Assembly: GCF_017348835.2 (NCBI RefSeq)
Contig: NZ_CP072315.1
DNA: 64,000 nt
Strand: one strand, 5' to 3'
Origin: Escherichia coli
Lineage (GTDB): Bacteria > Pseudomonadota > Gammaproteobacteria > Enterobacterales > Enterobacteriaceae
Part shown: one piece after another, positions 1,550 through 64,000 of the stretch
How the letters are laid out: each line of letters opens with the position of its first letter
Position numbering within the stretch: the first letter of the stretch is position 1
Translations under genes and position numbers: made by a program
Notes under the pieces: model-generated
What the model was told of the DNA's origin: nothing
Seen by the model: the letters and a program-made list of their open reading frames with translations, nothing else
The model's database searches: none

Positions 1550-1550
1550 C

Positions 1551-12149: not shown

Positions 12150-12205
12150 TCAAAAGGTGCCGATGGCATACTAATCCACACCCTGAAAAGAGGGGGGTTG
12201 CCCCC

Positions 12206-13543: not shown

Positions 13544-13566
13544 GGGGTTGCCCCCCTCTTTGTCAG

Positions 13567-13725: not shown

Positions 13726-13823
13726 GGCCTTCTTCTCCTTGCATTTAAGCAGGCAAGAGGCTACGCTGTGTGTGACTAGCATACAGGGGCCTCGGGTTGT
13801 ACTGACCCCAGAAAGTTGGACAG

Positions 13824-44290: not shown

Positions 44291-44294
44291 GTTG

Positions 44295-45985: not shown

Positions 45986-45997
45986 CGCTGGACTTTA

Positions 45998-47316
45998 ATG
46001 ACAGTGGTAGTGATGGATAGGCTCATTTCCATTGTCGTCATTTTATCGGACAAGCCTCTTCGTCCTACAGGTTTAAGCTGACAATGGTAGTGATTGGATG
46101 ATCTCACTACTGTTGTCACTCAGTTCTTTGAGCGGACCCTTCCCTCGGTTGGTCGGCATTAACAACGGTAGTGACTCGATTGGCTCACTGCCATTGTCAT
46201 CGTGTAAATGACGTACCTTATCAGCTCAGCTGAAAGCAATGACAACGGTAGTGACTCTAATTGCTCACTGCCATTGTCGTCGTGTCTATTGAGAGCCTTA
46301 TCAGTGCACCTGAAAAGCAATGACAACGGTAGTGATTCTAATGGCTCACTACCGTTGTCACCGTGTGTATTGAGAGGATGGTCCACTTAACTGGACGTAT
46401 ATGACAATGGTAGTGACTTTAATAGCTCACTACCATTGTCGGTGTGTGAATTGAGAGGATGAGCAGCTCAGCTGTACGTCCATGACAATGGTAATGACTT
46501 AATGAGCTCACTACCGTTGTCACCCTGTTAATTAAGAGGCTCATCTGCTCTTCTGGAAGGCTATGACAACGGAAGTGACTTGCTGGGCTCACTGCCATTG
46601 TCGCCGTATGAATTGAGAGGATCATCCGCTCTTCTGGATGGCAATGACAACGGTAATGACTTAATAGGCTCACTACCATTGTCACCCTGTGAATTGAGAG
46701 GATGATCTGCTTAACCAGACGGCCATGACAACGGTAGTGACTTTCTGGGCTCAATACCGTTGTCACCCTGTGAGTTAAGAGGTTGACCCGCTCTACTGGA
46801 CGGCCATGACAACGGTAGTCACTTTCTGGGCTCACTACCGTTGTCGCCATATAGAATGAGAGGAGCATCAGCTCAACTGAACGGCAATGACTACAGTAAT
46901 GAGCTGGATGAAGCATAACCATTGACATCTGGCCCAACCGGAAGCCGTATTCGCCAATCCAATCGAGATTCACAATGGCCGTGACTCGCCGCATTAAGTT
47001 CCGGTGTCCTCCTAAAGCTGAACGCACACTCGGAGGACAATGACAATGCCAGTAAGGTACACATCATTACCATTGTCACTATAGCTACCAGAGAAGCCGG
47101 GATTTGAATGTCGATGGTAGTGAGTGGGTCAACTCACTGCCATTGTCACCCCGTTACGATATTTTCCGTTGGATGTACTGGCCAATGAAGTAAAGCGTAG
47201 AAACCGGGTGTTAACAGGTGACTCAGGAGAAAGCGTTGAATTTCGCAATCTCGATCTACATAGGGTGGTAGAGAACAATGACAACGGTAATGACTTTTGA
47301 CTCATTACCGTTGACG
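45998..47316. repeat. array of about 16 head-to-head iteron pairs with about 80-82 bp phasing
   Basis: Units of TGACAACGGTAGTGAC, 8-11 bp spacer, GCTCACTACCGTTGTCA beginning near 46080, 46163, 46240, 46320, 46401, 46481, 46562, 46642, 46724, 46806 plus degenerate copies; the half-site matches the 21-bp iterons upstream of repA. Confidence 0.8.
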
Positions 47317-47390
47317 TGAAAGAGCGGGCTGGGACTAACGAAAATCGAAGAAGTAATTTAGCACCCGGAGCCTAAACCGCCGGGTTAACT

Positions 47391-48479
47391 TTAGCTGGCG
47401 TTGCTGTTCTTTTTCTGGCTTCGAAGACTACGAATATAGCGCAGTTCTTCAGCGGTTAAATCATGGACGGTAAGAACATCATCGCCGTCAATCGGGTCAG
47501 CTGGTGGGCATAACTCACCTTCTAAAACAGAAGACCCTGAGTTCTCTTCTTCATCTTCAACCACTTCTAAAGGAGGCTGAGTATTGTTCAAATTCAGATC
47601 GGGATCCCGCTTATGAATCTGGAAGTATACTTTTCCGTCTTTCTTAATTTCGGTGTACTTGAGGTATCCTATCGATGCCAACTCTTCAAGAGCCTTTCTC
47701 ACGGTAGCATTCTGACTATTTGCTCGTGTTTTGAGGTTCAGACGATTTTTCAGCCGAGTAAGGGATATCGGTATAGGATTTGGCGGTAATGACTCTATGA
47801 ACGTATAGAGAGCCTGGGCGCTTTCCTTCTTGGCCAACTCCTTAATTGCCTTCAGCTGCATCAAAACCTTATGATCGTATTGATAGAGCTCGAAAATCTT
47901 AGGATCAACCTGAAGGACAACCTGATCTGATTCCGGGTCTAACAGGGCAGACTGTACCAGATGCGTTGTATAGACTTTGGACGAGTTATTACTGGTGAAC
48001 GACAAGGTAACGGATGCTAACCTGCGTAAGGAGGCGTCTATACGTTTTCTGGACGCTGTAGATGAGCGATAATTTTCAGGCGTACATAGCTTGAGGAATT
48101 CAGTGAATTTTAAGCTTATCGTGTCATTGTTAATCGGATGATTGGCATAGGTTCGAATGATGCCCATCCACGTCTTAAAATCTACTGACATATTAAGACG
48201 CTCACCGACAATTGAAATATTGGTGAACCCCTCGCTCTCCATTAAAGAGAGCGTCTGTAACTCTTTCGTTGCGTCAAAGCCAACCGTTTTATATTCCCGA
48301 TTTTGACGCCCCACACTCTTTGGTGATGGGACGAACAGCCCGAGCCGCATCAAAGCAATAGACTGCACCGTACGGTTGCTGTTAGGACGCAAAATGATGT
48401 CTTTACCTGATTCTTTCTCTCTAACAGAGAAAGCCCTGGTGACCAGGTCCTGCTGCTCAGTATCTTTCTCTTTAGTCAT
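47391..48479 (-). CDS. repA: plasmid replication initiator RepA (RepFIB-like, Rep_3 family)
   Basis: TVQSIALMRLGLFVP, DFKTWMGII, THLVQSALLDPESD, FELYQYDHKVLMQLKAI and ESAQALYTFIESLP blocks resemble RepFIB-type initiators as I recall them. Confidence 0.85.
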   Translation of the reverse strand: MTKEKDTEQQDLVTRAFSVREKESGKDIILRPNSNRTVQSIALMRLGLFVPSPKSVGRQNREYKTVGFDATKELQTLSLMESEGFTNISIVGERLNMSVDFKTWMGIIRTYANHPINNDTISLKFTEFLKLCTPENYRSSTASRKRIDASLRRLASVTLSFTSNNSSKVYTTHLVQSALLDPESDQVVLQVDPKIFELYQYDHKVLMQLKAIKELAKKESAQALYTFIESLPPNPIPISLTRLKNRLNLKTRANSQNATVRKALEELASIGYLKYTEIKKDGKVYFQIHKRDPDLNLNNTQPPLEVVEDEEENSGSSVLEGELCPPADPIDGDDVLTVHDLTAEELRYIRSLRSQKKNSNAS

Positions 48480-48690
48480 AATAAGTTATCACTGAATGTG
48501 TAAACAGATTGGTGAATAGTAAGCCCCAGCGAACTCTATGTCACTGGATGGATCATTGTGATGATCCATATCTGTGCATAAGTTCTACCTAAAAAAACGA
48601 CTCCACTCATTAAAACTTGGCAAAAACTCTTTGCATACAATGACCTGCAACTCTTATCAACAACGGATCAGATCAAGTTAAAAAGATCTA

Positions 48691-48800
48691 ATGAAAAGTC
48701 ACTACTATTGTCGCTCTGATCACTACTGATGTCAAAAAACTCATTACCAACGTTATAATAATCACTACTAATGTCAAAATAATCACTACTGTTGTCACTG
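48691..48800. repeat. five 21-22 bp direct iterons (origin set 1)
   Basis: tcactact(a/g)ttgtc-like repeats at about 21-bp spacing upstream of repA. Confidence 0.7.
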
Positions 48801-49094
48801 ATCACGTCTCAGGCCTTGTGCCGTCTGGCCTGGAGGCAGCGGGGATCTCTTTTGATCTATCAGGAACACTAAGGTACTAATTATTGGAACTACCTTGTGG
48901 AAAATGGGGATAAATAAATGCTTAGTTCTTATACAGGTCTCAACTTGCCTCCCTGATAAAAACTGTCGTCAAAGCTAAATCACAGCCACAGGCATTTTCG
49001 GTGGATAAATTTTTGAGAAATAGAAGCATACATGCAGACTCGTGTCGCAAGTAATTGAAAGTAATGATTTATTTAAATAATGCGAGTCACCTTA

Positions 49095-49215
49095 CCTCAC
49101 AGTGGAAGTTTAAGTCTAACCTCACTACCATTGTCACTTAAAATCATTACCAACGTCGAAATAGTCTCTACCATTGTCTTTTAAGTCACTCCCGTTGTCA
49201 CTTATGTCGCTACTG
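49095..49215. repeat. five 21-22 bp direct iterons (origin set 2)
   Basis: Second block of the same iteron followed by a sequence related to that after set 1. Confidence 0.7.
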
Positions 49216-49586
49216 TTGTCAGTGACAATGCTCCAGCCCAGTAACCATGCGGCCTACAGCGTACCGGGATCTTCTTTGTACTCTCTGGCACCTTTGGGAT
49301 CATTTATTGGATCTACATGAGGGATAAAATCTTTTGACGATTTCGTAGTGCAGTTATACCAGCGACTTAGCAAGACAAAAGCTGCAATTTAGTGACGAGT
49401 TACTAGTCTGCCCAACAAGAGCAATGCAGAGAAGATATGTGGTGAAATGACCATGGTAGTGAGTCTAATCACTACCATGGTCCGCAGTAAGCGTTACTTA
49501 CGCAATGAACGTCGGACTGATTTGCAACAACATGGGCTACGGCGCATCAGAAGGCGGCCGTTGTGCTTCAGCAAAACAGCCCTGCT

Positions 49587-52043
49587 TTATTTTAATTCTT
49601 CAATGTTAATCATGAACTCAGATCTGCCAGTAAGGCCGGATACAGCAGGGAAAATAGGAAAGCTACGGCTGTCCCCGAGCCCCAAATCCAGTTGAAGCTC
49701 TTTGCTTTCACCTGGCATCGCAGAAACGCCATTTACAGTCACGCCGAATGCAGCGTCCTTACGGACAGTAAGCACTGCGTCCTGAAGCCCTGTAGCGATT
49801 GAACCATCCTTTTTACGCAGCTGGCTGGCATACAGAACAGCCAGAGCAGTATTGTCAGATGTTTTGAGAGAAGCATTGACAGCTAAGGTTTTCAGATTCT
49901 CTAGCCTGACGAGATTGTTTGGAAGGTAGTTAAATTCGACTGAGCTTTCTTTAACGTTGTTCATCTCATCTTTGGCCTGAACTGTGAGAGTGTATGTTTC
50001 GCCTTCATTAAGAGACGGAAAGATCTTGGGATAATTAGGTGCATACAGGTTGTTTCCCAGATTCACCCAAGACAATTCCACCGCATCAGAAACAGGGCCA
50101 CCGCGAAGAGTCATACGGCTTAAGGATGGTTTAGTTAGAGCATCGGTGAGCTGTATACGGACGTTCTCCAGCCCATATACTGTTACGTTTTTGCTGATCG
50201 GTTTTCCTTCGTAGCTAATACTTACAGATGGTGCTGTATTATCAACGACAACTGTTTGATAAGGGAGGTTACCGGTATTGTTGAATGTATCTTGGGCATT
50301 AATCACCACGTTATAACTGCCTTCTGGTACCTCTTTCATGTTGAACTCATACGTGTAGTTCCCAGACGCCATATTTCTACCTGTTTGTTTGCCGGTTACG
50401 CTTATTTCTGCGTTGTTACGGTTTTTATCTGACAACCAAACTCGATTTACATAAACATGGTCGAAATATGAACCATCTCCAGGTTGATTCACGTAAACCT
50501 GGAGAATGTTGGTGGTTTCATTGTAATCAAATCCAGTGACGGAGGGACCCAGTGTATGCCAGGCTATATTCTCCCATATAGGGGCAAAGAAGGTTGCTTC
50601 GGTGGTTGACCTTACTTCATAGCCACTATGAAGATAACCGGTAGTGCCATTTATAATATCCTGGGGCAAAGAGACGGTACAGGTTGTTGAGCCAGCTGGA
50701 ATACTGCATGTTGCTCCGCCAGTGATTTTTTGATCATATGGCCTGGCCTGTACATTGAATCGGATATTAGTAAGTTTTATAGGCATATCAGATGCCTTGA
50801 ACAGGTTCCAGTTTACGCTGTTGAACCATGTTCCATCAGCCTTTTGTCGTTCTATGGGTGAACTTCCCCAAGCCGGACTCTTTACAGAGGCAGGATCCCA
50901 GTTGAGCCAGCTGGCATACTGACCAAGATCTCCTCCAGACCATTGATATGTATTCACAGGTCTATAGTAGTTTCCATCTAAGGCACCCTGTGGCAGCTTA
51001 ACTTCCACGTAGACATAGGTGGCATCTTCGGAAAGGACCTGTACTCCGCCATAGTTATTGGTAATGCTCATGCCACCATTTCGATATGGCTTCCAGTTAG
51101 TTCTTGGGATACGTATAACCAACTTGTAGGGGTTTTCCAGCACTGTAAGGCCTCGTTTAAACGGGACGTATCCCGAAGAAATGCCGGGTACAACACTGGT
51201 GCTTACACGTGAGTCATGAACTGCAAATGGCGTAAATTCTCCCATTTGATCGTCATATAAAAACCGCTGGGGAGGAATGTTAAGCGTATTTCCTGCCAGG
51301 TCCGTAACGATGAAATTGAAGGTGAATTCTTCATCAAGATCACTTGAGGGCATGCCAGCCTGGGTGTTCATATCTTTAATCCACGGATAGAACGCACGTT
51401 TATTGGCTGTGTCATAACTCAGGTTATTGTCGGAGACCACAGAACCATTACTTCGTTTAATGACAAGACGGATCTTGTCAATTCCACTAGCATCCTCAAT
51501 ACCGTCTGCAAATATAGAAAACTGGCCACTACCGCCTCGGCCCAACTCCCAAAGTGGCCCAGAAAGTACCATGTCGTAACCTGCGTTTTGACTCGGATAA
51601 ATACTCTTATAGCGTGGAGGAGTTGTATCAACGATGAAATGATAAGTAGATGTGCTCACTACAGTCTGGCGAATATCCAGAGTTTCATTGACTACAGTAA
51701 AGGTCCCTTCTCCGAGCGCCGGTAGAACCATATCCTTTCCATAGTATTCTGTTCCATCGGCAGCAACGATACGATCTGCAACGCTCGTTTTGGTCGAGAC
51801 GGAGGAATACATAACCTTTTTATCGCTGTCTCGTGTGACCGTCACTCGCTCGTACCGATCAAGACCCGATATCAAGTTCAGAGTCAAAACACCAGCGGGA
51901 TTAAGATATGTTTGTGTTGCAGGTTTGATATTCCGAACAGCCTTATTGGTATCTGTAAATGAGTAGCTAAATACCTGAGCATGTGCCGAAGATACAGTAG
52001 CAAGGGCAGTTGCAACCATGCAGCCAATTAGAGTTTTACGCAT
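49587..52043 (-). CDS. large secreted beta-rich protein (paralog 3 of 3)
   Basis: 818 aa, signal peptide (ATALATVSSAHA), conserved blocks shared with the other two paralogs; two palindromic motif copies upstream. Confidence 0.7.
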   Translation of the reverse strand: MRKTLIGCMVATALATVSSAHAQVFSYSFTDTNKAVRNIKPATQTYLNPAGVLTLNLISGLDRYERVTVTRDSDKKVMYSSVSTKTSVADRIVAADGTEYYGKDMVLPALGEGTFTVVNETLDIRQTVVSTSTYHFIVDTTPPRYKSIYPSQNAGYDMVLSGPLWELGRGGSGQFSIFADGIEDASGIDKIRLVIKRSNGSVVSDNNLSYDTANKRAFYPWIKDMNTQAGMPSSDLDEEFTFNFIVTDLAGNTLNIPPQRFLYDDQMGEFTPFAVHDSRVSTSVVPGISSGYVPFKRGLTVLENPYKLVIRIPRTNWKPYRNGGMSITNNYGGVQVLSEDATYVYVEVKLPQGALDGNYYRPVNTYQWSGGDLGQYASWLNWDPASVKSPAWGSSPIERQKADGTWFNSVNWNLFKASDMPIKLTNIRFNVQARPYDQKITGGATCSIPAGSTTCTVSLPQDIINGTTGYLHSGYEVRSTTEATFFAPIWENIAWHTLGPSVTGFDYNETTNILQVYVNQPGDGSYFDHVYVNRVWLSDKNRNNAEISVTGKQTGRNMASGNYTYEFNMKEVPEGSYNVVINAQDTFNNTGNLPYQTVVVDNTAPSVSISYEGKPISKNVTVYGLENVRIQLTDALTKPSLSRMTLRGGPVSDAVELSWVNLGNNLYAPNYPKIFPSLNEGETYTLTVQAKDEMNNVKESSVEFNYLPNNLVRLENLKTLAVNASLKTSDNTALAVLYASQLRKKDGSIATGLQDAVLTVRKDAAFGVTVNGVSAMPGESKELQLDLGLGDSRSFPIFPAVSGLTGRSEFMINIEELK

Positions 52044-52199
52044 ATGATGCTCCGGGAATAGGTTATAGCCTTATTCTACGGATTCAGCCTACAAGGTCCG
52101 GTCGGATAAAGTGATAATTTGCCTGTTAAAAGAGACATCAAGTGAGAAAGCAACCAACGTACAGAATGCAAAATGGCGGCAGTGCATCTGGATGACGCA

Positions 52200-52210
52200 A
52201 AAGTAACTTT
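52200..52210. promoter_or_regulatory. AAAGTWACTTT palindromic motif copy
   Basis: aaagtaacttt; in the divergent region between 49587..52043 and 52416..53042. Confidence 0.5.
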
Positions 52211-52264
52211 TTGTATCCACTTTTTTGGATTTTAGCCTTCAAAATGAGTATTCAACCAATCATA

Positions 52265-52275
52265 AAAGTAACTTT
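52265..52275. promoter_or_regulatory. AAAGTWACTTT palindromic motif copy
   Basis: aaagtaacttt; second copy in the same divergent region. Confidence 0.5.
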
Positions 52276-52415
52276 TGATAGACGCTGCTCCTTTATGTTT
52301 GCCAATTGTGCTGATATGTTTGTAAATTCAAGGAAGCGAGATTTTAAAAGCATCTGTTGAGTCAAATTTATGTAAAATAACAGGGAAACCATCACTTCTA
52401 GGTTGAGGAAACCCA

Positions 52416-53042
52416 ATGTTATACATGCTCTTATGCTGTTTTCTGATGCTCAACAGTACATTCGTTATGTTCAGAGCAATGTCTGCAATAAGTAAAGGAT
52501 CCGCTAAAGAAAACCGGTCTGAAATATCGCTGATAGTCCTAGCAACACTTGGAATCGCATCACCATTCATTGTCGCAATGATTACTATTAATGAAAGTAT
52601 GACATCTAAAACAGTAACAGATTTTTCTTTGGGTGCTCAGTGGTACGGAATGGTTTCAGCGGTAGCGCTAATGGGGTTATATGCTCGACGCGTTTGGAAA
52701 GAGAAGAAGTCCTTATTTACTGGCGCTTTCCTGGCCTCTTCCTTAATGGCCTTTATTTTTACTGACAGCCTTGTTTTCGTATCCCAGAAGGACACCGGCG
52801 TTCTGGCTACTTTCGTACTCGATAAAAACGCTGGAGATATTGATTGTAGTCGCCCGGCTATGATTGTCCATTACAGTAAAGGTGTTCCAACGGACTGGCG
52901 TTGCCCAACCAGTATCATGTTGATGGCGTATTCTTCATATCCTTTTTTACCCTGGCCTGAGTATAGCCATGGTACCAGCCAGTCTCTTACGGTTGTTATT
53001 GATACATTTATGGAAAACGCTGTTAATCTCAGCCAAAAATAA
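52416..53042 (+). CDS. integral membrane protein, unknown function
   Basis: 208-aa ORF with multiple hydrophobic segments. Confidence 0.45.
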   Translation: MLYMLLCCFLMLNSTFVMFRAMSAISKGSAKENRSEISLIVLATLGIASPFIVAMITINESMTSKTVTDFSLGAQWYGMVSAVALMGLYARRVWKEKKSLFTGAFLASSLMAFIFTDSLVFVSQKDTGVLATFVLDKNAGDIDCSRPAMIVHYSKGVPTDWRCPTSIMLMAYSSYPFLPWPEYSHGTSQSLTVVIDTFMENAVNLSQK

Positions 53043-53047
53043 AAAAT

Positions 53048-53075
53048 AAACCTCACTAGTGAGAGGTTTTATAAA
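53048..53075 (+). terminator. putative bidirectional hairpin terminator
   Basis: cctcactagtgagagg inverted repeat followed by a T-run, between convergent genes. Confidence 0.4.
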
Positions 53076-53099
53076 CCTGAGCCACCAATCTAATTAACT

Positions 53100-53381
53100 C
53101 TATATTTTTGTTTTAGCTTTTTTAAAGATAGACTTACCGAATAAAACAGCAATTATAGAGCAAAGGCCTGGCGTTAGGACAAAAGCTAATAATGCACTGC
53201 CAAAACTTGTCATTTCAGGCACCAGGAACCAGCTGATAGGCCACGTCAGGGCTGGTAAATTTAGCGGATCATAAAGCGCATGTAGAGCGCTTAACACACA
53301 GTAAAGTGCTAAAAAGCAAACTAGATAAACAACGATCCACATTTTAATTTGCTCAGCAATTTCAAATTTTGGACTGCCCAT
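53100..53381 (-). CDS. small membrane protein
   Basis: 93-aa hydrophobic ORF. Confidence 0.4.
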   Translation of the reverse strand: MGSPKFEIAEQIKMWIVVYLVCFLALYCVLSALHALYDPLNLPALTWPISWFLVPEMTSFGSALLAFVLTPGLCSIIAVLFGKSIFKKAKTKI

Positions 53382-53823
53382 GCTTTACCTCAGTGGCTGA
53401 ATATTGATGGTTAATATCTTTAATCACCCGTAAGCACTTAGTGCATACCTTAGTTCGATTTGTCTGCTTGTCCAGAGTGTATTTAACTTCAAGTTGACCT
53501 CCAGCATTAAGCAAAGTGAGCATCTCATCTTCTAACACGCTTCGGTAAATGGTCTTGGCCGAGAGTGTGCCCGGTAACGAGTACTCAACATAATTGTTTG
53601 AAACTCTTACCGATTTAGGGATTTTACCACTGAGCTGGGTTTCATTCGTTGAAGGCATTACAGTTACTTTAATCACAGTTGCCGGTGACCAGAAATCCTG
53701 ATAACGCACTTTATGAATTTTATCAGCTCTAAGGCCTAACCACACATTTCCGGCGATAAGAACAATAAGCAATCCATAAACTGATCGTCGAATGTTACGC
53801 CTTTTAATCACAATGTCCCCCAT
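53362..53823 (-). CDS. membrane-anchored hypothetical protein
   Basis: 153-aa ORF with N-terminal TM helix; overlaps downstream gene. Confidence 0.45.
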   Translation of the reverse strand: MGDIVIKRRNIRRSVYGLLIVLIAGNVWLGLRADKIHKVRYQDFWSPATVIKVTVMPSTNETQLSGKIPKSVRVSNNYVEYSLPGTLSAKTIYRSVLEDEMLTLLNAGGQLEVKYTLDKQTNRTKVCTKCLRVIKDINHQYSATEVKHGQSKI

Positions 53824-54044
53824 CCCTCAAATATCATTCTAAATAACTGCACCAGGATATCATGAGCGTAATTAATAGAATTCTTCATAACCGGGGTTTT
53901 CAGTTGAGTTTGCGGACTCTTTACTTTGCGGTTTCTCACCCTCTAGTTGAGTATCCCTGACAGGCTTGGATTTACCCATGCTCCTCTGAAAGGTATCCAT
54001 AACAAACTCAATATCTTCTTCTGGCAGGCTGGTGGGTTGGTTGC

Positions 54045-55736
54045 TCATAGGACTTCCTCTTGTTGAATACGTTCGGCGTACAGGATGCGAACCGAAACGG
54101 TCGTGTTTTCAAACTCGTTCTCAAAAACGTCCATCCATTCCGTCCGGAATTCTTCCCCCAAAAGGTTATCGAGCCCCTGAAGAGATAATGGAAGAACGGC
54201 TGCTAGAGATCCCCCGGCTGCGAGATGAGATGCAGCTGCCTGGAGATGCAGCCTGGCCCGGTTATCGGCAAAAGGTGGGTTCATCACGACATAATCAAAC
54301 TTCTTCTGTTGATTAGACTTAGACCATGTGAGGAAGTCAGCTTCTGTCGTATCGTATCCCTTAGCCCGGGAGATAAGGCAATTCAAAGTATCAAGCTCGA
54401 TGCCAGTAACGATCACACCGGCAGGGAATGATTTAAGCAAATCCGCATGGCCAATATTAGGCTCCAGGAGGGTATCCCCTTCCCCTGCACCAAGCAGGGA
54501 AGATACATATTCGCTGATTCGGCAAGATGAAGGGTAAAACTGATGCGATACAATATCAGGCATCTCCCCTATCTGGCCGATGTAACGAATAACCTCACAC
54601 GGATCATAGGAAAATGTCACATCGTATTTTGTTACTGTTGCCCCTAAGAACCGAAGGGTGTCAGCGGCAACACTCGAAGATTTGCGTTCGGCGAGAGACC
54701 CTAAAGATGTCCAGCAACTCCATTTATTGTCCCCGTCATTTTTAAACATCAGTTCAGAAAGCTGCATCCGGGTATCAAAGTCGATGCACTGCTTAAGTAC
54801 AGGGAATGCCTCCAAAGATTTCTTGCTATGAGCCATACGGTCGGCAGGTAATGCCAGCGGTACGATAGCTGATAAAATATTGTTAAGCCGCTCGGCGATA
54901 TCAGGGTGGACGTCAATATGCATTGATCCATTTTTGTAAACCCTGAAACGAATACTGTTGCCATCGATGCAGATCCATTTTCTGAACCCCTCATGTTCGA
55001 CCAACGCCTCAACCAATGATTTGGTGTTATGGATCGCCTTCACCTGTTCGCCACGGAAGAATGCGCATATAACGCGGAGCTCGCTCAGCGGTGAAATGCC
55101 AGACTCTTTAAAATCCACCCTTAATTTCTGCCAGGGGTATTTAGACGGCTCGCAAACTCCGGTAGTGATCATGCGGGTGGAGAACCCAAAAGCTTTGTTT
55201 GTCTTGTGACTGCGGCTCAGAGACTGGAAGACGTCGTAAACCCTTTCTTTAATAAATTGATTGCGGTCATTAAGCAAAGCAACGACTGTGCCCACTACAG
55301 CGTCAGCTGTGAAATCAGGGATCACCTGAGGCGGCATAATATAACGGTCGGCCGTAAACTGCTTATCCCATTCGTTACGTTTGGCATCCGACATGATAGG
55401 CAAAACATCAGTGAGTGCCATAACGCATTTCCAGTATTCTGATCTCAGAGCGTTTTCTGCGAACAAAGCATCCGCTTCTGAGATGCTGTGGTTGTAGCCT
55501 GAGAGATAAGAATAAAGTTTCTGGTGATTGTGGGTTTTGAACTGGACAGCCATGAGTTTCAACAAGCAGAGTTCATCATTATAGGACTCAACAAGATCCG
55601 CGATAATGCCGAGCTCTTTGCGCATATCTGGAAGAAATGTTTCAGGAGAGCTAACCACCAGGCTATGAGAGGTTGTTAAAGCCAGTACGCTGTGACCTGC
55701 ATTATCGGGTTTAGCTTCAGAATCAAGAGATGACAT
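54045..55736 (-). CDS. N6-adenine DNA methyltransferase (NPPF motif), 563 aa
   Basis: YVVMNPPFADN catalytic motif near the C-terminus; variant promoter-proximal element upstream. Confidence 0.7.
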   Translation of the reverse strand: MSSLDSEAKPDNAGHSVLALTTSHSLVVSSPETFLPDMRKELGIIADLVESYNDELCLLKLMAVQFKTHNHQKLYSYLSGYNHSISEADALFAENALRSEYWKCVMALTDVLPIMSDAKRNEWDKQFTADRYIMPPQVIPDFTADAVVGTVVALLNDRNQFIKERVYDVFQSLSRSHKTNKAFGFSTRMITTGVCEPSKYPWQKLRVDFKESGISPLSELRVICAFFRGEQVKAIHNTKSLVEALVEHEGFRKWICIDGNSIRFRVYKNGSMHIDVHPDIAERLNNILSAIVPLALPADRMAHSKKSLEAFPVLKQCIDFDTRMQLSELMFKNDGDNKWSCWTSLGSLAERKSSSVAADTLRFLGATVTKYDVTFSYDPCEVIRYIGQIGEMPDIVSHQFYPSSCRISEYVSSLLGAGEGDTLLEPNIGHADLLKSFPAGVIVTGIELDTLNCLISRAKGYDTTEADFLTWSKSNQQKKFDYVVMNPPFADNRARLHLQAAASHLAAGGSLAAVLPLSLQGLDNLLGEEFRTEWMDVFENEFENTTVSVRILYAERIQQEEVL

Positions 55737-55867
55737 TTTACCGGTCCTTTAGAAAAAACTTTTACCAGGATAGCAACGTCGCTCAGTAACCTAATAGGTT
55801 CAGTGACACGAAAAAGTTTTTTATGTCTCTGAATAAAACTTAAAGATGTCAACTCATAGAAAGAAGC

Positions 55868-55895
55868 AAAAAAAAAGCCCCGCATAAACGGGGCA
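55868..55895 (-). terminator. rho-independent terminator after the ParB-like gene
   Basis: gccccgtttatgcggggc hairpin followed by a 9-T run on the minus strand. Confidence 0.5.
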
Positions 55896-55983
55896 AGAAC
55901 GATACATGGAGGTTTAAAAAAGGCGGGCAAAAAGCCTGAATCCTTAATGACTCTGACAAAACCAGCACTTTGCCAAAAGTAAA

Positions 55984-57147
55984 TTATTCTGCGTCCGGCT
56001 GTGGGTCAGTATCCTGATCGGTCTCTTCCCCTGCCTTCTTAGCATTTTTTTTACGTGGGTATTTTGGCTTCTCACCATTAAGTTTTGCCTGACGATTCTC
56101 CGCACGGCGAAGCTGCTTGTTCTCTGATTCTGTGATCTCTTTTGAAAGATTTCTCAACATCTCCAGAGTACTGCGGTTCAACGTAATGTTGATTTCTTCG
56201 TCAGCACTTGAATCTGTCAGCTCCGGCAATTCAATATCCCCCAGTTTCTGTAATAAGCTGGTGGTGATGAGTTTGACGCCTTCTACGGCTTTTGTGGCAA
56301 TAACCGGCGGAATCCGTGCTGGCTTGAAGTCTGAAGGTCTGACTCGTACCTGACCATGTTGGGTTTTTTTCACCGTGATGCCATTCGCATCGGCCTGCTC
56401 AAGTTCTGCGATCATCTTCTTGATACGTGAAATTGCTTCTGTTTCGCCGAGCTCATCGATCAGTGAAAGCACGTTAACATACGAAATAGCGTCAGCATGA
56501 ATCCATTTCTTGATAACAACAGAACAGGTTGTCAGGCGGATAAGAGAACTGATGGTCGTCGGGCTTTTATTTTCACGTTGAGCAATTCGTTCGAGTGACC
56601 AGCCAGCAAGAGAATGTAGGCGACGATAGGACTCGCCAAGCGCAACAGGAGAAAGCGCAAGACCACGGTTACCATCAATGGTCGCGAGCTCACAGCCAAT
56701 TTCATCTTCTTTAATCTCAACGCAAAGGATTGTGATGTCATGATCTTCATCACATGCCATCATTGCGGCTTTTAAACGGCAGTGCCCCTGGCGAACAAAA
56801 GGTACCCCATCAATGACACGTACTCGGATAGGGTCTACATAGTCACCTCGAATGTAGGCATTCTTGATGTTGTAGATGTGTTCTTCAACCTCAGGGAGCT
56901 TATAGTAATCGTCACCCATTCCCATTTCGCGGGAGTTGAAGCCTGGCGTGACCTGAATTACTGAAGGGTGGATAGCCCATGCTTTCTGGTCACTTACTTC
57001 AGTACAAAGTTCAGGGTTTGCATCACGGAACTGTTTAAGCCCAGTGACGTAACGGCCTGTGCCAGTAACTACTGAAAAGGCAACATGGGCCGTTTTAAAG
57101 ACCTTGTCATTAGCTTGCTGTGTAGGTTCTGTCAGTAAAACACTCAT
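55984..57147 (-). CDS. ParB/Srx-domain (ParB-like nuclease) protein
   Basis: GFNSREMG ... VIDGVPFVRQGHCRLKAAMMA block paralogous to 7210..8394 and 60358..61413. Confidence 0.7.
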   Translation of the reverse strand: MSVLLTEPTQQANDKVFKTAHVAFSVVTGTGRYVTGLKQFRDANPELCTEVSDQKAWAIHPSVIQVTPGFNSREMGMGDDYYKLPEVEEHIYNIKNAYIRGDYVDPIRVRVIDGVPFVRQGHCRLKAAMMACDEDHDITILCVEIKEDEIGCELATIDGNRGLALSPVALGESYRRLHSLAGWSLERIAQRENKSPTTISSLIRLTTCSVVIKKWIHADAISYVNVLSLIDELGETEAISRIKKMIAELEQADANGITVKKTQHGQVRVRPSDFKPARIPPVIATKAVEGVKLITTSLLQKLGDIELPELTDSSADEEINITLNRSTLEMLRNLSKEITESENKQLRRAENRQAKLNGEKPKYPRKKNAKKAGEETDQDTDPQPDAE

Positions 57148-57495
57148 AGGGGCTCCGTTACATTTTTCTGCTTACTTTCTGCGTAGCGGGGATACTACCG
57201 AAAAAAAAATTCATAATTTTTCGCAAAAAAGGTACTTTTTGAGCCTATTCTGATTTTTTACAAAAAAAGGTGGCTCCCCATTACTTGTGATGGCATAAAA
57301 ATCGCTTCATAAACAAATACATAAATCCAAAACATAAAGTTCAGGTATAAGTGAGGAAAAATCTTATAAATCCGAAATGCTGAAAGTCAAAACTGTGCGT
57401 CTTAAACAACTTTTTTTTGCTCCCTAAGTTATTAGTTAAAGCCCGTGGTTAGGTACGATACCAGCACCTAAATTTCTCTCTCAGGTATAGACACT

Positions 57496-58329
57496 TTGAC
57501 TCGACATCTCAGACACATGCCGATAATCAAATGGGCTGGTGGAAAAACGAAACTGATGCCTTTCATCAGCCATCACTACCCACACGATCATAGTTGCCGG
57601 TGGGTAGAACCCTTTATAGGCGGTGGTGCCGTTTTTCTGAACATGTTTGCACAAAATGCATTGCTTGCAGATAGCAATCCAGACTTGATCAACCTATACA
57701 GGACTATTCAAAGACAGAAAACTAACTTTATAAATCAGGTCCAAAACTTGGCGGATAAAACCTTTGTCGAAAAGGACTACTATGAGATGAGGGACCGTTT
57801 CAACAAAACCTGTATTTCTGGTCAATCGCTTCAAAGAGCGGCTTTGTTTTACTCCCTGAATCGCCTGGGCTATAACGGTATGTGCCGCTATAACTCAGAA
57901 AGAATCTATTCAGTGCCGTGGGGGAAACATACAGAACTGAAGCTTGACCTCAATAAAATAGACTACCTTTCATTTCGTCTTTCAGGTATTGAACTGATCA
58001 CCGCTGGTTTTGAGGAGACTCTGGCCGCAACCGGTGAAGGAGATCAGATTTACTGTGATCCGCCATATGACAAAACAAGCAAAACTAGTTTTGTCAGTTA
58101 CGATGGTAAACCGTTCAGCCAAAGCGACCACGTGCTGTTAGCAAATATGCTCGTTGACGCTCACAGAAAAGGCGCTGCTGTTGCGATATCAAATAGCCTG
58201 ACATCATTCACTTTGGGCCTCGATGAAGAGCGTGGATTCGTCATACACAGACTCAGCGCTTACCGATCCGTAGGAAGTAAGCCGAATACACGGAAAACGG
58301 AAACAGAAATACTGGCCGTGCTGAAATAG
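57496..58329 (+). CDS. Dam-family DNA adenine methyltransferase
   Basis: IKWAGGK, FIGGGAVF and CDPPYD motifs characteristic of Dam-type enzymes. Confidence 0.85.
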   Translation: MTRHLRHMPIIKWAGGKTKLMPFISHHYPHDHSCRWVEPFIGGGAVFLNMFAQNALLADSNPDLINLYRTIQRQKTNFINQVQNLADKTFVEKDYYEMRDRFNKTCISGQSLQRAALFYSLNRLGYNGMCRYNSERIYSVPWGKHTELKLDLNKIDYLSFRLSGIELITAGFEETLAATGEGDQIYCDPPYDKTSKTSFVSYDGKPFSQSDHVLLANMLVDAHRKGAAVAISNSLTSFTLGLDEERGFVIHRLSAYRSVGSKPNTRKTETEILAVLK

Positions 58330-58337
58330 AGTAAATT

Positions 58338-59003
58338 CTAATCAACTAGGCTAATCCATTCCTCAAAAGTTAATACCTCAGGGTAAGTTCGTTGAACATA
58401 AGGTATAAACTGAAGCTCTTCTATTCTCCGGTCGCCCCTCTTTCCTTCGCAAATAAATGAAATGAGTCCTTGCTGAGAAAGGCCAGTAAGGACGCTCATA
58501 AGTCTTATATTTAGACTTTTAAGCTGTAAGTCGTTATTAATGTCCTCCACTTTATGAGAGCTCTGGCCTGAACGTTTAAGATACTCGTAAACCATGAAAT
58601 TCGAATTTCGTCGTTTTAACAATTTTTCGGTTATGCATTCCTGAATGAAGTCGCCAAGAGCATCTAAAAGCGGACTGAGAACTACCGGGAAAGTTAATGT
58701 GTAACTTTGAGAAGTTTTAGACAAAGTGAATGAGTTTAGAAAGCTAAAGTTTAGTCTCTTTTTTGAATATGGAACATAAGCGACAAGAGTAGTCGACATA
58801 ACAGTAAGTAAAGCTTCAAGATGGTTCACTGTTATTAAAGTGGTTTTATCTGTATTTCTAAGATTATGGAAATCAATAAACGCTACTCTTGAACGGCTAA
58901 GCCAATCTTGTACTTTAATGTCGATAGAAAATTGCGAGATATGATTTGAACATTCATTTTGGGTGATAGGGCATGCAGACGAAAGATGGTTATGGATTAT
59001 CAT
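58338..59003 (-). CDS. hypothetical protein (start uncertain)
   Basis: The long ORF runs to 59195 but its 5' part covers the palindromic motif at 59092, so an internal ATG at 59003 is proposed; no clear RBS. Confidence 0.3.
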   Translation of the reverse strand: MIIHNHLSSACPITQNECSNHISQFSIDIKVQDWLSRSRVAFIDFHNLRNTDKTTLITVNHLEALLTVMSTTLVAYVPYSKKRLNFSFLNSFTLSKTSQSYTLTFPVVLSPLLDALGDFIQECITEKLLKRRNSNFMVYEYLKRSGQSSHKVEDINNDLQLKSLNIRLMSVLTGLSQQGLISFICEGKRGDRRIEELQFIPYVQRTYPEVLTFEEWISLVD

Positions 59004-59091
59004 GCATAGCACAAAAAAAGGAAAACGGCAGGCTGTGGGGCATTGAAAACCGGTTAAAGAAAGCTTAGACGTTTCATATGCGCTTACCGGA

Positions 59092-59102
59092 AAAGTAACT
59101 TT
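59092..59102. promoter_or_regulatory. AAAGTWACTTT palindromic motif copy
   Basis: aaagtaacttt; upstream of the proposed start at 59003. Confidence 0.45.
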
Positions 59103-59426
59103 TCTTAACGTTGGCTTTGACGATGTTCTTGCATTTTTACAAATGAAACCGAGACCCAGATCATTGTGCATTTTAAAGTCCATCTCCATCATCACCTTTT
59201 AGCCTTAACTGTATGGTATTGGTATACAAAAAATTAAAATTATAATTAATAAGATTATCATTTTTTTACAATAGAAAAGGTTCTGATAGAGGGGAATTTA
59301 AATGTAAAAGATTTATACTCGCAGATCTTTATGAGGGATAAAACCCATTGCGTAAGCAACAATATTACGTGAGTGAGTCCTAACGACAGTTAAAGTCTTG
59401 GCTCTATATTTAAGCAGCAAAAACAT

Positions 59427-60143
59427 TTAACTGTCTTGGAGTTTATTTAACTTAAAAACTGTTATTGCAGCATAATTTTTCGAATCAAATTCATAGAATT
59501 TTCTGACTTTTCCAGTCAAATGATAACGTTCACCCAATAAAATGTGATCCTGTTTATCGGCCGTTAAAGCGATCCCGTCATTTCTAACTTTACCAGTAAA
59601 TGTAAAAAAATAACTCCCTTTACTTTTTGCGTACGCGGCCCTGACTTCAGTAAATGTTAGTTCAATGCTTATGACCTGGCCGATATTGTAGCTATGTTTT
59701 AAAATTTCTTGTTCATTTTCCGGAGTTTCAGACAACATCACATCAAAAGTTGTAAAGAAACAATCCAGCTGGCGTTCTGTCAAGAAACGGTTATTGTCTA
59801 ATTGCGCCAATATACTATTAGAAAACTTAGTGTTAGCCTTTTTTGCTTTCTCAATAAGGACGTGGTTTCTGGATTTCCATGCTTCGAGTGTTGGGTTAAC
59901 ACGCAGTTCCGGAATGTTATCGAGAAAGGTAATTGGCTCTAGTGCCACTAATTTTTCAATAATGGGTCCAACTGTTTGTACCCCATGACACTTTTCACAT
60001 AAATCAGCCCCTTTGTGGCCTGTGCCCGCACATTCGTTACATTCTCTTTCGATAGGTGCATAATAATTTCCATCTCCGTTAAGTGATACATTCACTGAGG
60101 CTGGTACCATATGACCATCAAGAGTAAAGAAAAGAGATTTCAT
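59427..60143 (-). CDS. zinc-ribbon protein with DnaJ-type CxxCxGxG motif
   Basis: CNECAGTG and CEKCHG motifs near the N-terminus, like 34369..34839. Confidence 0.5.
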   Translation of the reverse strand: MKSLFFTLDGHMVPASVNVSLNGDGNYYAPIERECNECAGTGHKGADLCEKCHGVQTVGPIIEKLVALEPITFLDNIPELRVNPTLEAWKSRNHVLIEKAKKANTKFSNSILAQLDNNRFLTERQLDCFFTTFDVMLSETPENEQEILKHSYNIGQVISIELTFTEVRAAYAKSKGSYFFTFTGKVRNDGIALTADKQDHILLGERYHLTGKVRKFYEFDSKNYAAITVFKLNKLQDS

Positions 60144-60340
60144 TTTCGAAACACCTCCAAACGTGCCTCTACGATTGCTACAGCTTCTTTCACAGTTTTT
60201 TCATAGTGGTCATGCCCTTCAGGAAATTGATCAAAACGTTTACCGTGTTCTAACTCTTCCATGTTGCGTTTAAGGACTTCATGAGTTAGAAGCAAATCAC
60301 TATAATTATCGATAAGAGTCAGCTTTATAGGTTTAATCAC
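60140..60340 (-). CDS. hypothetical small protein
   Basis: 66-aa ORF overlapping the downstream gene by 4 bp. Confidence 0.35.
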   Translation of the reverse strand: MIKPIKLTLIDNYSDLLLTHEVLKRNMEELEHGKRFDQFPEGHDHYEKTVKEAVAIVEARLEVFRK

Positions 60341-60357
60341 TCAACTAATCCTCGTTT

Positions 60358-61413
60358 TTAATATTCCTTAAGGAGATCTCGAATTTCCAGAAGCTCTTCT
60401 AATTTTGGTTTAGAAACAATGATTGCTGTATTTTCGTCGTTAAGTAAAGACAATAAAATATTTAGCTTTTCATCATTCAAGATTATTTGAACACCATCAT
60501 TGGAAAATATTACATTATTACTATTAACATTTTTGAACAAGTGTGCACTATCTCTACCAAATTTTAGTTCTGTTTGAGTATTCGTTATAGATTCCGTATG
60601 TGTACTTTCCACAAGCTCAAGAAATTCAGATTTTAGCCGTTCTGTTTTCTTATGCGAGAGGCGCTTAATACCCAAAGTCTTACGAGTGACTGCCGAATTT
60701 TTCTTTTCTGGTCCGCCTTTATTTAAGGTGTCTGGTCCTGCTCCAGCTGCATTGTGTTCAGGTATGCCTACAATTTTGCTCGTTGTAGTCTCAATATTCT
60801 TAACGCCAGGTAAGAAACCTTCTATATGTTTTAAAACCATTTTGTGATCGTTGGAATATTTTAACATTATTTCAATGGCGAGCGTTTTTTTGATTAGATT
60901 TAGGCTAATCAAACGTTGAAGCTCTAATGGCATATCAAGGATTTTTAGCATATTACGAATTGCGGTAGTTGATCGTTGATATCGCATTGCTAGTTCTTCA
61001 ACCGAATACCCGAGACTAACAGCATGAGCTAATGCATGAGCTTGCCCAACCGGATTTAGCCCATTGCTTCTGTTACCATCGAGGTTCTCAAGGTATTCTT
61101 CAATTTCGTTTTTATAATCGATTAGGATAACAGATAATTTTGGAATATTAGCACCTTCAGAAATTGCTAATTTTAAGCCATGAAAACGAGTATGACCTTG
61201 ACGAACTAAATATTTACCTTTTCTTTTTACGACCTTGATCATATCAACCTGCCTTCCTTCCTTAAAGGCTTGTTTGATTGACACAATCATCGACTTGACA
61301 GGTTCTTGTTCGTAACACAAATCTCCGATTACCGCCTCTCGGGGATTAAATCCCTTTTCAATTTCAACTAGATTAGTATCCACTTCAATGACTGTATGTT
61401 TGCTGTTGTTCAT
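60358..61413 (-). CDS. ParB/Srx-domain (ParB-like nuclease) protein
   Basis: GFNPREAV ... VVKRKGKYLVRQGHTRFHGLKLAI block; third ParB-like paralog. Confidence 0.7.
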   Translation of the reverse strand: MNNSKHTVIEVDTNLVEIEKGFNPREAVIGDLCYEQEPVKSMIVSIKQAFKEGRQVDMIKVVKRKGKYLVRQGHTRFHGLKLAISEGANIPKLSVILIDYKNEIEEYLENLDGNRSNGLNPVGQAHALAHAVSLGYSVEELAMRYQRSTTAIRNMLKILDMPLELQRLISLNLIKKTLAIEIMLKYSNDHKMVLKHIEGFLPGVKNIETTTSKIVGIPEHNAAGAGPDTLNKGGPEKKNSAVTRKTLGIKRLSHKKTERLKSEFLELVESTHTESITNTQTELKFGRDSAHLFKNVNSNNVIFSNDGVQIILNDEKLNILLSLLNDENTAIIVSKPKLEELLEIRDLLKEY

Positions 61414-61699
61414 ATCTTCCTCCTGTTTACTACATGATACATGAACCTCAAATTTGCCAAATAGGGCTGATACATCTAAAAGGTAAACTCAAAAAATTTG
61501 CTTAATAAAATTAAAATAAAAACTGTCTTGAATAAAACAATGATAGTAGACCCTCGTTCATTTCCGTTTGCGATCTGTAGATATTGTTAAAGGAGCGCTA
61601 TTCCTTGTTTTATATGGACTTATCATTGTTTTCAACAGGATAGATCAATTCTTTAGATCACTAAAGATCAATAGAGTTCAAGTAAAGATCACGGCATCT

Positions 61700-61870
61700 T
61701 TAACTCATTGATTATAGTGACTTTATGAAAGGATCCGGCATTCGGATGCATGCGAAAAGCATTTGAATGAATAAGGAAGGCATTTACTGGAATGCTTATG
61801 GCATTTAGGTTAATGCGTAAAAAGCATTTGCAAGAATATGTTATAAACAGTTTGCCAAATGAAAATCTTA
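61700..61870. repeat. iteron-like repeats upstream of the second repA
   Basis: Repeated (A/G)GCATTT(G/A) ... AATGC units (aaaagcatttgaatgaat, ggcatttactggaatgc, aaagcatttgcaagaat). Confidence 0.5.
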
Positions 61871-61889
61871 TCACCGACGAGTTAAGTTA

Positions 61890-62765
61890 ATGATTAAAAA
61901 CAACGAGTTAATCCATCCTTTTGACGTAACCAGTAATGAATCAGGTAAGACTTATCAACTGACGCCTAACTCGTCCAAGTCGGTTCAGCCCGTGGCCCTG
62001 TTGAGATTGAGTGTATTTACCCCTGTCGGCACAAAAGAAAACCGCGACCGAAACTTTGAAGTTGATGCCTCTGATGAGCTTTCGTGTATGGAAATTGCAA
62101 GATCGGAGGGTTATGACGACATCAAGATAACTGGTGTCAAACTATCTATGTCTACCGACTTTAAGTGCTGGCTCGGGATCATCATGGCTTTCAGTAAATA
62201 TGGTTTTACTTCCGAGAAGATTACCCTGACTTTTAACGAGTTTGCGAAGATGTGTGGTATCAGTTCAACAAACATCAACAAACGAACTCGTGCGCGCTTT
62301 AAAGAGTCATTAATGAACCTTGCATCGGTAGTGCTTGCCTTCTCAGACTCTCGGAGTGGTCGGTTCACAGTAACGCATCTGGTGCAGAAGGCTATGATTG
62401 ATCCAAAAAGCGATACTGTTGAGTTGGTTGGGGATCCTTCTATGTGGGAACTGTATCGTTACGACCATAAGACATTGTTAAGCCTTCAGGTTCTATACAT
62501 TTTGGCTAAAAAAGAAGCTGCGCAATCTCTCTATATTTATTTTGAAGCAATGCCAGCTGGTACGTTGTTCGTTAATATGAAACGGTTGAGGGAAAGGTTG
62601 CTTCTTACAACCCCTATTCGTACGCAAAACCAGATAATTCGTAAAGCAATGCGGGAACTTGAATCTATCGGATATCTCGATTATCAAGAAGTTAAGAAAG
62701 GTCGCGACATACAATTTCAGATCTTCAAAAGAAGCCCTAAGCTGGCCCTCGCCAAACAAGGTTGA
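61890..62765 (+). CDS. repA: plasmid replication initiator RepA (second Rep_3-type replicon)
   Basis: SVQPVALLRLSVFTP, DFKCWLGII, THLVQKAMIDPKSD, WELYRYDHKTLLSLQ and AAQSLYIYFEAMP blocks collinear with the repA at 47391..48479 but clearly diverged. Confidence 0.85.
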   Translation: MIKNNELIHPFDVTSNESGKTYQLTPNSSKSVQPVALLRLSVFTPVGTKENRDRNFEVDASDELSCMEIARSEGYDDIKITGVKLSMSTDFKCWLGIIMAFSKYGFTSEKITLTFNEFAKMCGISSTNINKRTRARFKESLMNLASVVLAFSDSRSGRFTVTHLVQKAMIDPKSDTVELVGDPSMWELYRYDHKTLLSLQVLYILAKKEAAQSLYIYFEAMPAGTLFVNMKRLRERLLLTTPIRTQNQIIRKAMRELESIGYLDYQEVKKGRDIQFQIFKRSPKLALAKQG

Positions 62766-62989
62766 AAGCTACCAGGTATGCACTGGTTATAACATGCTGA
62801 AAAATAAGTTATTTATCAGTGCTATGCTTAGTGCTTCTTTTACTACTGGTCTTACATCTCGGCTTAATGTGCAAAAAAGTAACTTTTCAAACGAACTCCT
62901 GACTATTCATCTGTATGCCTTTCTGGCTCAAGCGTACATGCTAGCCCATTCATTAAATGCCGTGGAGCAAGATGGTTTCGTGCGCACTC

Positions 62990-63500
62990 TATTCACGTGA
63001 ATGCCTTTTGTGGATTACGCCTCTTACATTCATACAAATGCTTTTGATGTCGGTATCCCAAAAAATCATTCATTGAAATGCTTTTGTTTGCCACTGTATC
63101 CCGAGCATAGCTATGCAGTGGTATAAAAAGGCATTTTGGTGAATGGCATTAGGTCGAATGACACACAGTACAGCTTTGTTAAGAGCGAGAATGGTCCAAG
63201 ACATCTATGACATTGGGCATCAGAAGGACTATGTGTTTGATATGAGATCAAAAAAATATCAGAAGCATCACAACTCCAATGGCATTCAAAGAAATGCCTT
63301 TGTTTTGTTAGTACACCAAACAACCCAAAATTCATGCAGTTATATCAAAGACTCATTCGCAAAAGGACTCAGCCAGAAAGCATTTGCTTAAATAGCATTG
63401 GCCAAAAGCATTCGAATGAATGATGTTCATATGGACAAGACAAAGTCCCACTCACGCCCAGAGGTGTAAAAGGCATTTAGATGAATGACGCACCGGCCGA
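62990..63500. repeat. iteron-like repeats downstream of the second repA
   Basis: Many copies of AATGC(C/T)TTT / AAAGCATT-type units in both orientations. Confidence 0.5.
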
Positions 63501-63660
63501 GGATTGTATGTAGTTTCTCCAACTGATAGTTGCCGAACCAGGGAGCACAGTGATATGCGGCCTTCTCAGAATCAAGAGATAGATATTAAGGGAACAAAAA
63601 AGATTAGATATGAAGCTTAGTTACCTGCCCGATATCTAGTTAGAGCTTTTCAAACCATCA

Positions 63661-63671
63661 AAAGTGACTTT
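63661..63671. promoter_or_regulatory. AAAGTWACTTT motif, one-mismatch variant
   Basis: aaagtgacttt near the right edge of the window. Confidence 0.3.
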
Positions 63672-64000
63672 TATGCTTGAGGAGTCTCATCAGCTTCAGG
63701 ATTGAGCTTAACGTAATCTTACCCCCTCCCCTCTTTCAAACTTTTACTAAGCGTTCACTGGTACTTTTCAAAGATTATGCTTTAGGCCCCTTTGCTTAAA
63801 AATTCACCAATCGCTAAACGTTAAAAAAAGGGGGTTTATGCGAACGGAAGGATCGGAATAAAAAAGTATTATTCATTCGCGTTTACGTGAACTCAAATCT
63901 ACACGGAGTAATTATGGAACTTTCTTTAAATATTGGCCTTAGTGAAAAGAAATCTAACACGGCTGCACTTTTTAAAACAAAAAGCGCAAAAGTGATTTTG

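Follow-up and report, generated by a model that had tools for sequence, protein, structure and literature searches.

The 64,000-nucleotide stretch of Escherichia coli DNA considered here (contig NZ_CP072315.1 of assembly GCF_017348835.2; 'the window' below) carries two genes for replication initiators within 15 kb of one another, one on each strand. Both open reading frames (ORFs) are full length in the ORF listing (47391-48479 on the minus strand, 362 amino acids (aa), and 61890-62765 on the plus strand, 291 aa), and the two proteins align collinearly, with 43% identity over 281 aa (BLASTP, E = 1e-83; 42% in the comparison made for the tree described below). The PGAP annotation of an identical plasmid has genes at the same two coordinates, named RepHI2 and RepB-family initiator; we refer to the proteins as RepHI2 and the second Rep. 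An initial annotation, made from the sequence and an ORF list, had described the pair as diverged, collinear rep homologues, each with an iteron family of its own, and had read them as the sign of a cointegrate or multi-replicon plasmid. The observation is correct, down to the exact coordinates and the intactness of both genes, and so for the most part is the interpretation: what is seen here is the already known double replicon of IncHI2 plasmids, a textbook case.

Iterons and layout of the two replicons

Table 1. Features of the two replicons and of the DNA around and between them (positions within the window)
Feature	Position	Strand	Basis or remark
RepHI2-type iteron-like sites, distal, 7, degenerate, mixed orientation	43872-44271		separated from the main array by the IS91-family element
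IS91-family element (transposase 44611-45810; 62-aa ORF 44413-44601)	44299-45977	+	Pfam Y2_Tnp, Zn_Tnp_IS91
81-bp tandem array, ~11 regular units	45999-46940		Tandem Repeats Finder (period 81, 9.3 copies); repeat families; site map
Iteron sites between array and repHI2 stop codon: single 47064, inverted pairs 47109/47134 and 47279/47302	47064-47316
repHI2 (RepHI2A) initiator, 362 aa	47391-48479	-	ORF; PGAP RepHI2 WP_000159529; 99.4% to R478; phrog_775
Origin-type element A: 3 GATC (48666-48685), then 5 direct iterons, 21-bp spacing (48699-48797; third degenerate)	48666-48797	+
DnaA-box-like 9-mers at 48896, 48905 and 49000, one mismatch each, between the direct-iteron sets	48896-49008	-	consensus-level matches only
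Origin-type element B: second set of 5 direct iterons, 21-bp spacing, then 3 GATC (49268-49310)	49122-49221	+
Inverted iteron pair, far edge of RepHI2 region	49448-49483
Conserved inter-replicon backbone block	49587-61413		Pfam, NCBIfam, PHROGs, PADLOC
Big-domain protein	49587-52043
Three small ORFs	52416-53823		without intact R27 counterpart
DUF4942 methyltransferase	54045-55736
ParB-like protein, 387 aa	55984-57147
Dam methyltransferase	57496-58329		TIGR00571, 222 bits
Hypothetical (285 aa), zinc-finger-like (238 aa), hypothetical (66 aa)	between Dam gene and 351-aa ParB-like gene
ParB-like protein, 351 aa	60358-61413		only ParB-like gene adjoining a rep gene
Four AGATCA (GATC) repeats	61643-61690	+	unchanged in R27 RepHI1A
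Five direct iterons (core RGCATTYNNNNKAATR), 21-23-bp spacing, directly upstream of second rep	61737-61838	+	conserved in R27
Second initiator, 291 aa, RepHI1A(R478)	61890-62765	+	WP_000594612; 99.7% R478, 86% R27 RepHI1A; Pfam; phrog_775
Downstream iteron field: 14 motif matches, ~10 distinct sites, both orientations	62904-63487

Each rep gene is flanked on both sides by iterons, and the two iteron families keep to their own locations (Table 1), as had been claimed. The core TCACTACCGTTGTCA, with up to three mismatches allowed, was matched 46 times in the window where chance would give 1.18; 0/100 shuffles reached 46. Forty-four of these matches lie at 43872-49483, around repHI2, the other two being isolated three-mismatch sites at 25101 and 41557, and none is found near the second rep gene. 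The sequence AAAGCATTTGAATGAAT has seven matches in the window (0.41 expected), whilst the degenerate core RGCATTYNNNNKAATR has 29 (5.3 expected), 19 of which flank the second rep gene on either side, at 61737-63487, and none of which lies between 43092 and 61737. Judged from these motif counts, the two families are private to their genes and unrelated in sequence. Unrelated iterons would keep the two replication systems independent: the two initiators should not cross-talk, and therefore either replicon should be able to drive the plasmid.

Both replicons have the layout of P1 and RepFIB, with a GATC cluster, five iterons at a 21-bp spacing of one to two helical turns, the rep gene and further iterons downstream. 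In P1 the order is oriR-repA-incA, a GATC cluster lies next to the oriR iterons, and RepFIB is laid out likewise; in all of these systems the origin iterons are upstream and the control iterons downstream of rep, and a GATC cluster stands beside the origin iterons. The GATC sites of the window are distributed unevenly. Four GATC within 50 bp are found together at 61643-61690 and nowhere else, and three within 25 bp at just two places, each abutting the origin iterons of one replicon. Upstream of the two rep genes the density of GATC is 10.8 and 12.6 per kb, whereas the window as a whole has 3.5 per kb. An A+T-rich stretch lies at about 61483, upstream of the GATC repeats of the second replicon.

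The replicons differ from P1, RepFIB and pMT1 in the sequences of their iterons, and RepHI2 also in the unusual length of its control locus, which is built of 81-bp units with inverted pairs. Each unit holds two inverted 15-bp RepHI2 iteron cores, 25 bp apart from start to start, and the ORFs predicted within the array (for example 46419-47027, 202 aa) are artefacts of the repeat. The number of units varies, with about 11 regular units here and 12 in the IncHI2 plasmid R478 (6794-7780 of the R478 stretch compared). A passage in a review, which credits Page et al. 2001, mentions unusually long iterons of up to 76 bp in R478 (PMC4980987), and these fit the 81-bp units seen here. The arrangement of two direct-iteron sets upstream of the gene also occurs in R478 and in a Citrobacter freundii plasmid described below.

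By analogy with P1 RepA, F RepE and RepFIB, Rep monomers bound to the upstream iterons would serve both to open the origin and to repress transcription from the rep promoter. The five iterons upstream of the second rep gene would then be its origin and autoregulatory set, and the iteron field at 62904-63487 its control locus; we infer that the 81-bp array downstream of repHI2 is likewise a copy-control or incompatibility (incA-like) locus. Downstream iterons would titrate Rep and pair with the origin iterons (handcuffing), giving low copy number and incompatibility, and the inverted iteron pairs found there would suit Rep dimers.

The IncHI2 backbone and its IncHI1 counterpart

A megablast search with positions 46000-64000 returned 1238 plasmid records from PLSDB, the source of all record and protein counts given here. 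Many are 100% identical, and 1054 have 80% or more of the block in a single piece. The hosts belong to Escherichia, Salmonella, Enterobacter, Citrobacter and Klebsiella, and the matching records are typed by MOB-suite as IncHI2A plus rep_cluster_1088 and are mostly conjugative (MOBH, MPF_F). Each Rep protein is present at at least 99% identity in about 1110 PLSDB records. Compared with R478 (NC_005211), RepHI2 is 99.4% identical over 362 aa and the second Rep 99.7% identical (tblastn), and 12 of the 12 other genes tested show 97-100% aa identity with their order kept. In identical plasmids, as in R478, the Tra2 genes follow directly after the second rep gene, beginning with trhA/L/E/K (TraL, TraE and TraK homologues), htdO, trhB and others. 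R478 also shares the iteron families, the two upstream direct-iteron sets, the 81-bp array and the intervening genes. It differs in its 12 regular array units, in a few amino-acid changes and in lacking the IS91-family element. That element is likewise absent from pAMSH1, against which its junctions were mapped, and is present in some IncHI2 plasmids; by this comparison it is a lineage-specific insertion in the iteron field and not a part of the replicon.

We conclude that the window almost certainly contains the replication region of a conjugative resistance plasmid of the IncHI2 (R478) type, which normally carries two independent iteron replicons about 13 kb apart. Replicon typing by protein sequence identifies the gene at 47391-48479 as RepHI2A and that at 61890-62765 as a RepHI1A-type gene, RepHI1A(R478), also called repHI2C or the 'IncHI2A' marker. 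An inactivating lesion was looked for in both genes and none was found, the ORFs being intact and 99.4-99.7% identical to those of R478. Both regions of R478 are reportedly described as autoreplicative in the title of a study by Page, Whelan & Colleran in 2001; R478, the IncHI2 reference plasmid, was reportedly also the subject of work by Gilmour et al. in 2004. The naming of the pair varies in published lists, the IncHI2 replicons being given as repHI2A and repHI2C (PMC11628540) or as repHI2A and repHI2B (PMC5955447). IncHI2 plasmids are major carriers of mcr, extended-spectrum beta-lactamase, carbapenemase and heavy-metal resistance genes. It is because of the double replicon that typing routinely returns 'IncHI2/IncHI2A', and the stability and host range of these plasmids probably depend on it too. 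The biology of IncHI plasmids varies with temperature. With the region so identified, the whole window can be assigned to a known plasmid backbone, and no new biology follows from it.

The same block is found in R27, an IncHI1 plasmid: RepHI1A lies beside Tra2, a second replicon is about 14 kb off, and the genes in between are the same. R27 RepHI1A is the orthologue of the second Rep, with which it shares 86% identity (tblastn). The second Rep is thereby the best-conserved protein of the block (neighbours 50-82%). Between R27 and the window the RepHI1A iteron core has been kept, as have the five upstream iterons and all four AGATCA sites, whilst the surrounding non-coding DNA has diverged. The RepHI2 slot of R27 is filled by RepHI1B, which is 38% identical to RepHI2 and lies in the opposite orientation. 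R27 differs further in having no RepHI2 iterons (the core is found 0 times in 32 kb of R27, against 46 in R478 and 43 around the RepHI2-like gene of C. freundii), and it carries a RepFIA-like third replicon. Downstream of its repHI1A gene about 14 RepHI1A iterons form a regular array of 43/44-bp tandem units (8380-9004 of the R27 stretch), whereas the IncHI2 set at 62904-63487 is irregular and of mixed orientation. Because the same block is present in R478 and R27, the layout predates the split between IncHI1 and IncHI2, and on this comparison of sequences it is an ancestral multi-replicon backbone. The RepHI1A-type replicon is its conserved member, common to IncHI1, and the RepHI2 position is an exchangeable, group-specific slot.

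The R27 replicons were reportedly studied by Gabant et al. in 1993 and 1994 and by Newnham & Taylor in 1994. A passage citing Gabant 1993 states that in R27 either RepHI1 replicon can take over replication (PMC4853401), and the same source notes that several replicons are thought to widen host range and to help plasmids escape incompatibility. F and other IncF plasmids (RepFIA/RepFIB/RepFIC) also carry several independent replicons each; the IncHI case differs in that both main replicons come from one protein family and lie in one conserved block.

Whether the two replicons occur separately elsewhere has a partial answer. The RepHI1A type without RepHI2 is found in IncHI1 plasmids. In C. freundii, plasmid NZ_OW969905 has a replicon similar to RepHI2 (86-88% aa identity), with the same iterons and layout, in a different gene context and with no RepHI1A-type gene. 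A third RepFIB-family gene lies about 1.8 kb from it (288 aa, 36-40% identical to the others, unannotated and spanning the record start), and we therefore rejected this plasmid as a clean case of RepHI2 alone. Plasmid pSI115-1 (NZ_CP050763) has its second rep gene split by IS1 (1501-3150 of the stretch examined), as does its sibling NZ_CP050778. Since both plasmids persist with this disruption, the gene is dispensable there, at any rate beside another replicon; pSI115-1 carries IncN as well, and for that reason the plasmid was rejected as proof that RepHI2 alone suffices.

Initiator family and competing explanations

The initial annotation had labelled both replicons Rep_3-type. For the second Rep this stands directly, as it matches the models of the Rep_3 winged-helix (WH1-WH2) family (PF01051 and PF21205) above their gathering scores (Rep3_N 30.3 bits, cut-off 22.4; Rep3_C 21.9 bits, cut-off 21.1). 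Both Reps match phrog_775 over their full length (E = 6e-110 for RepHI2 and 6e-104 for the second Rep), and Rep3_N is matched by 8 of 10 aligned relatives. The AlphaFold2 model of RepHI2 has a predicted local distance difference test score of 68, with most of the core at 65-91; its N terminus and an extra C-terminal tail of about 65 aa are predicted to be disordered. Compared by Foldseek, the model matches RctB domains 2-3 (E = 1.5e-6) and RepE on its operator (2z9o; E = 7e-4, with low template modelling scores of 0.29/0.42), and TrfA and a Rep WH1 domain are lower-ranked matches. These matches would agree with two winged helices as in RepE, pi or RepA, albeit at low scores. P1 RepA, RepFIB and pMT1 RepA are members of this family as well (at 42-51% identity and with full-length matches to phrog_775), and differ from RepHI2 in its tail of about 65 aa. 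In a distance tree of ten family members RepHI2 groups with the C. freundii plasmid Rep (86-88%), then with RepFIB and pMT1 RepA (50-51%), whilst the second Rep groups with R27 RepHI1A and then with the Rep of a Salmonella IncF plasmid (62%); the two Reps of the window do not pair. The multi-replicon interpretation is right: both genes encode intact initiators of the RepFIB/P1-RepA branch, each with private iterons.

Several results weigh against reading the window as two complete, independent iteron replicons. RepHI2 gave no match to Pfam at E <= 0.01, the only hit being a TBPIP winged-helix domain at E = 0.055, and none to the NCBIfam hidden Markov models; sequence searches of the PDB, by phmmer with either Rep or with a profile of the family alignment, returned nothing meaningful. 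RepHI2 is probably a member of the Rep_3 family, by the indirect route of homology to the second Rep, the phrog_775 match and a structural model of moderate confidence. No DnaA box within one mismatch lies upstream of the second rep gene, and RepHI2 has one-mismatch 9-mers only. Promoter and terminator scans of both upstream regions were at or below chance. The roles of the iterons, upstream and downstream, are inferred from P1, F and RepFIB, and the autonomous replication of each region is taken from the cited literature, by title and citations. As a separate observation, a simple sigma-70 scan of 61400-63600 found 0 promoter-like sites where shuffles gave 6.0 +/- 2.3, though the rep promoter must lie there. 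A scan of 43000-64000 against Rfam found no RNA family, and hence no known antisense-RNA control element in that interval.

A recent cointegrate, in which two separate plasmids fused (for instance through an insertion sequence, IS) and each contributed a replicon, is favoured by the presence of two replicons within 15 kb, by the IS91-family element beside the RepHI2 iteron field and by a difference in G+C, which is about 0.45 around repHI2 and falls to about 0.36 around the second rep gene. Each Rep is moreover nearer to Reps of other plasmids (50-51% and 62%) than to its neighbour (42%), which points to separate origins at a remote time. We nevertheless regard such a fusion as highly improbable. 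The 15-kb block is syntenic in R478 (97-100% aa) and R27 (50-86% aa), down to the 9-10 intervening genes and the Tra2 junction, and is carried intact by 1054 plasmids, and the IS91-family element, variable among IncHI2 plasmids, simply interrupts the iteron field. No IS or res junction bounding one replicon was found, the only nearby IS being this lineage-specific insertion. As the block is common to R478 and R27, any fusion must predate the IncHI1/IncHI2 split. The cointegrate half of the initial interpretation was rejected on the synteny of the block and the variable nature of the insertion.

It could also be that one replicon functions and the other is a remnant, retained for incompatibility or copy control or in the course of decay. 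The persistence of pSI115-1 and its sibling with a split second rep gene would fit this, as would the failure of RepHI2 to match Pfam directly. This too is very unlikely, given that both ORFs are full length and each protein is so widely maintained in PLSDB, that the second Rep is the best-conserved protein between IncHI1 and IncHI2 (86% against 50-82%) and that its origin core has been kept while the flanks drift, which is the mark of selection; both regions are, besides, named autoreplicative in the literature. A local tandem duplication, after which Rep and iterons diverged in place, would agree with the collinear homology of the two Reps and with the other paralogous pairs of the block, the ParB-like (30%) and the Big-domain (41%) proteins. 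We find it scarcely credible: in the distance tree each Rep groups with those of unrelated plasmids, and it was on this tree of ten family members that in-place duplication was rejected. The iteron cores have no similarity, and the RepHI2 slot of R27 holds a third, equally distant Rep in RepHI1B. The preferred reading is the long-established double replicon of the IncHI2 backbone.

Genes between the replicons and partition functions

The inter-replicon block is syntenic in R478 at 97-100% aa identity. In R27, matches at 50-82% aa identity cover the named genes from the DUF4942 methyltransferase to the 351-aa ParB-like protein, plus the 818-aa Ig-like gene. The two ParB-like proteins both match phrog_1033 (E = 3e-28 and 2e-25); their Pfam HTH_ParB match is just at threshold and TIGR00180 falls below its cut-off. 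They are paralogues, 30% identical over 174 aa, and share 74% and 58% aa identity with their R27 counterparts (tblastn). Both are orphans, with no ParA partner nearby. Run on the inter-replicon genes, PADLOC matched generic methyltransferase models only and no defence system.

The initial annotation had stated that neither replicon has a ParA ATPase nearby and that both have ParB-like and methyltransferase genes adjacent instead. Within the window the first statement is right, as no ParA is annotated in the identical plasmid over window positions ~1-47800, nor in 46000-64000. A ParA/ParB pair does, however, start 14.6 kb past the second rep gene and a ParM module lies 20 kb past it, inside Tra2, in pAMSH1 and R478, and R27 has the same arrangement. 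ParA is missing from the window because the window ends before these modules, and the word 'instead' was accordingly misleading. The parAB and parMR loci are core IncHI2 markers (PMC5955447). As to adjacency, the 351-aa ParB-like gene does adjoin a rep gene, but the 387-aa one lies 7.5 kb from repHI2 and the methyltransferase genes 3.5-5.6 kb from either rep gene.

It is conceivable, although we think it rather unlikely, that the Dam and DUF4942 methyltransferases and the two orphan ParB-like paralogues serve replication control and are not passengers. The plasmid Dam, for example, would methylate the GATC clusters at both origins and make initiation independent of the Dam/SeqA state of the host; alternatively, each ParB-like protein would act at one replicon. 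P1 requires Dam methylation at oriR and encodes a Dam-like enzyme. The link between the plasmid Dam and the GATC clusters, the roles of the orphan ParB-like proteins and the function of the 81-bp array are the least explored aspects of the region.

The repHI2 gene and its iteron fields sit between two paralogous Big-domain (Ig-like) genes, at 41285-43705 and 49587-52043, whose products are 41% identical. In R27 the counterpart of the former is fragmented beside RepHI1B, and that of the latter is cut by IS30. At the other end of the window an IS150 copy lies at 13824-15193; in the positions upstream of it (1-13800) the coordinates are shifted by about 1350 bp against those of plasmid p2016062-242 (NZ_CP090540), which is otherwise identical, and the shift suggests an indel or rearrangement there.

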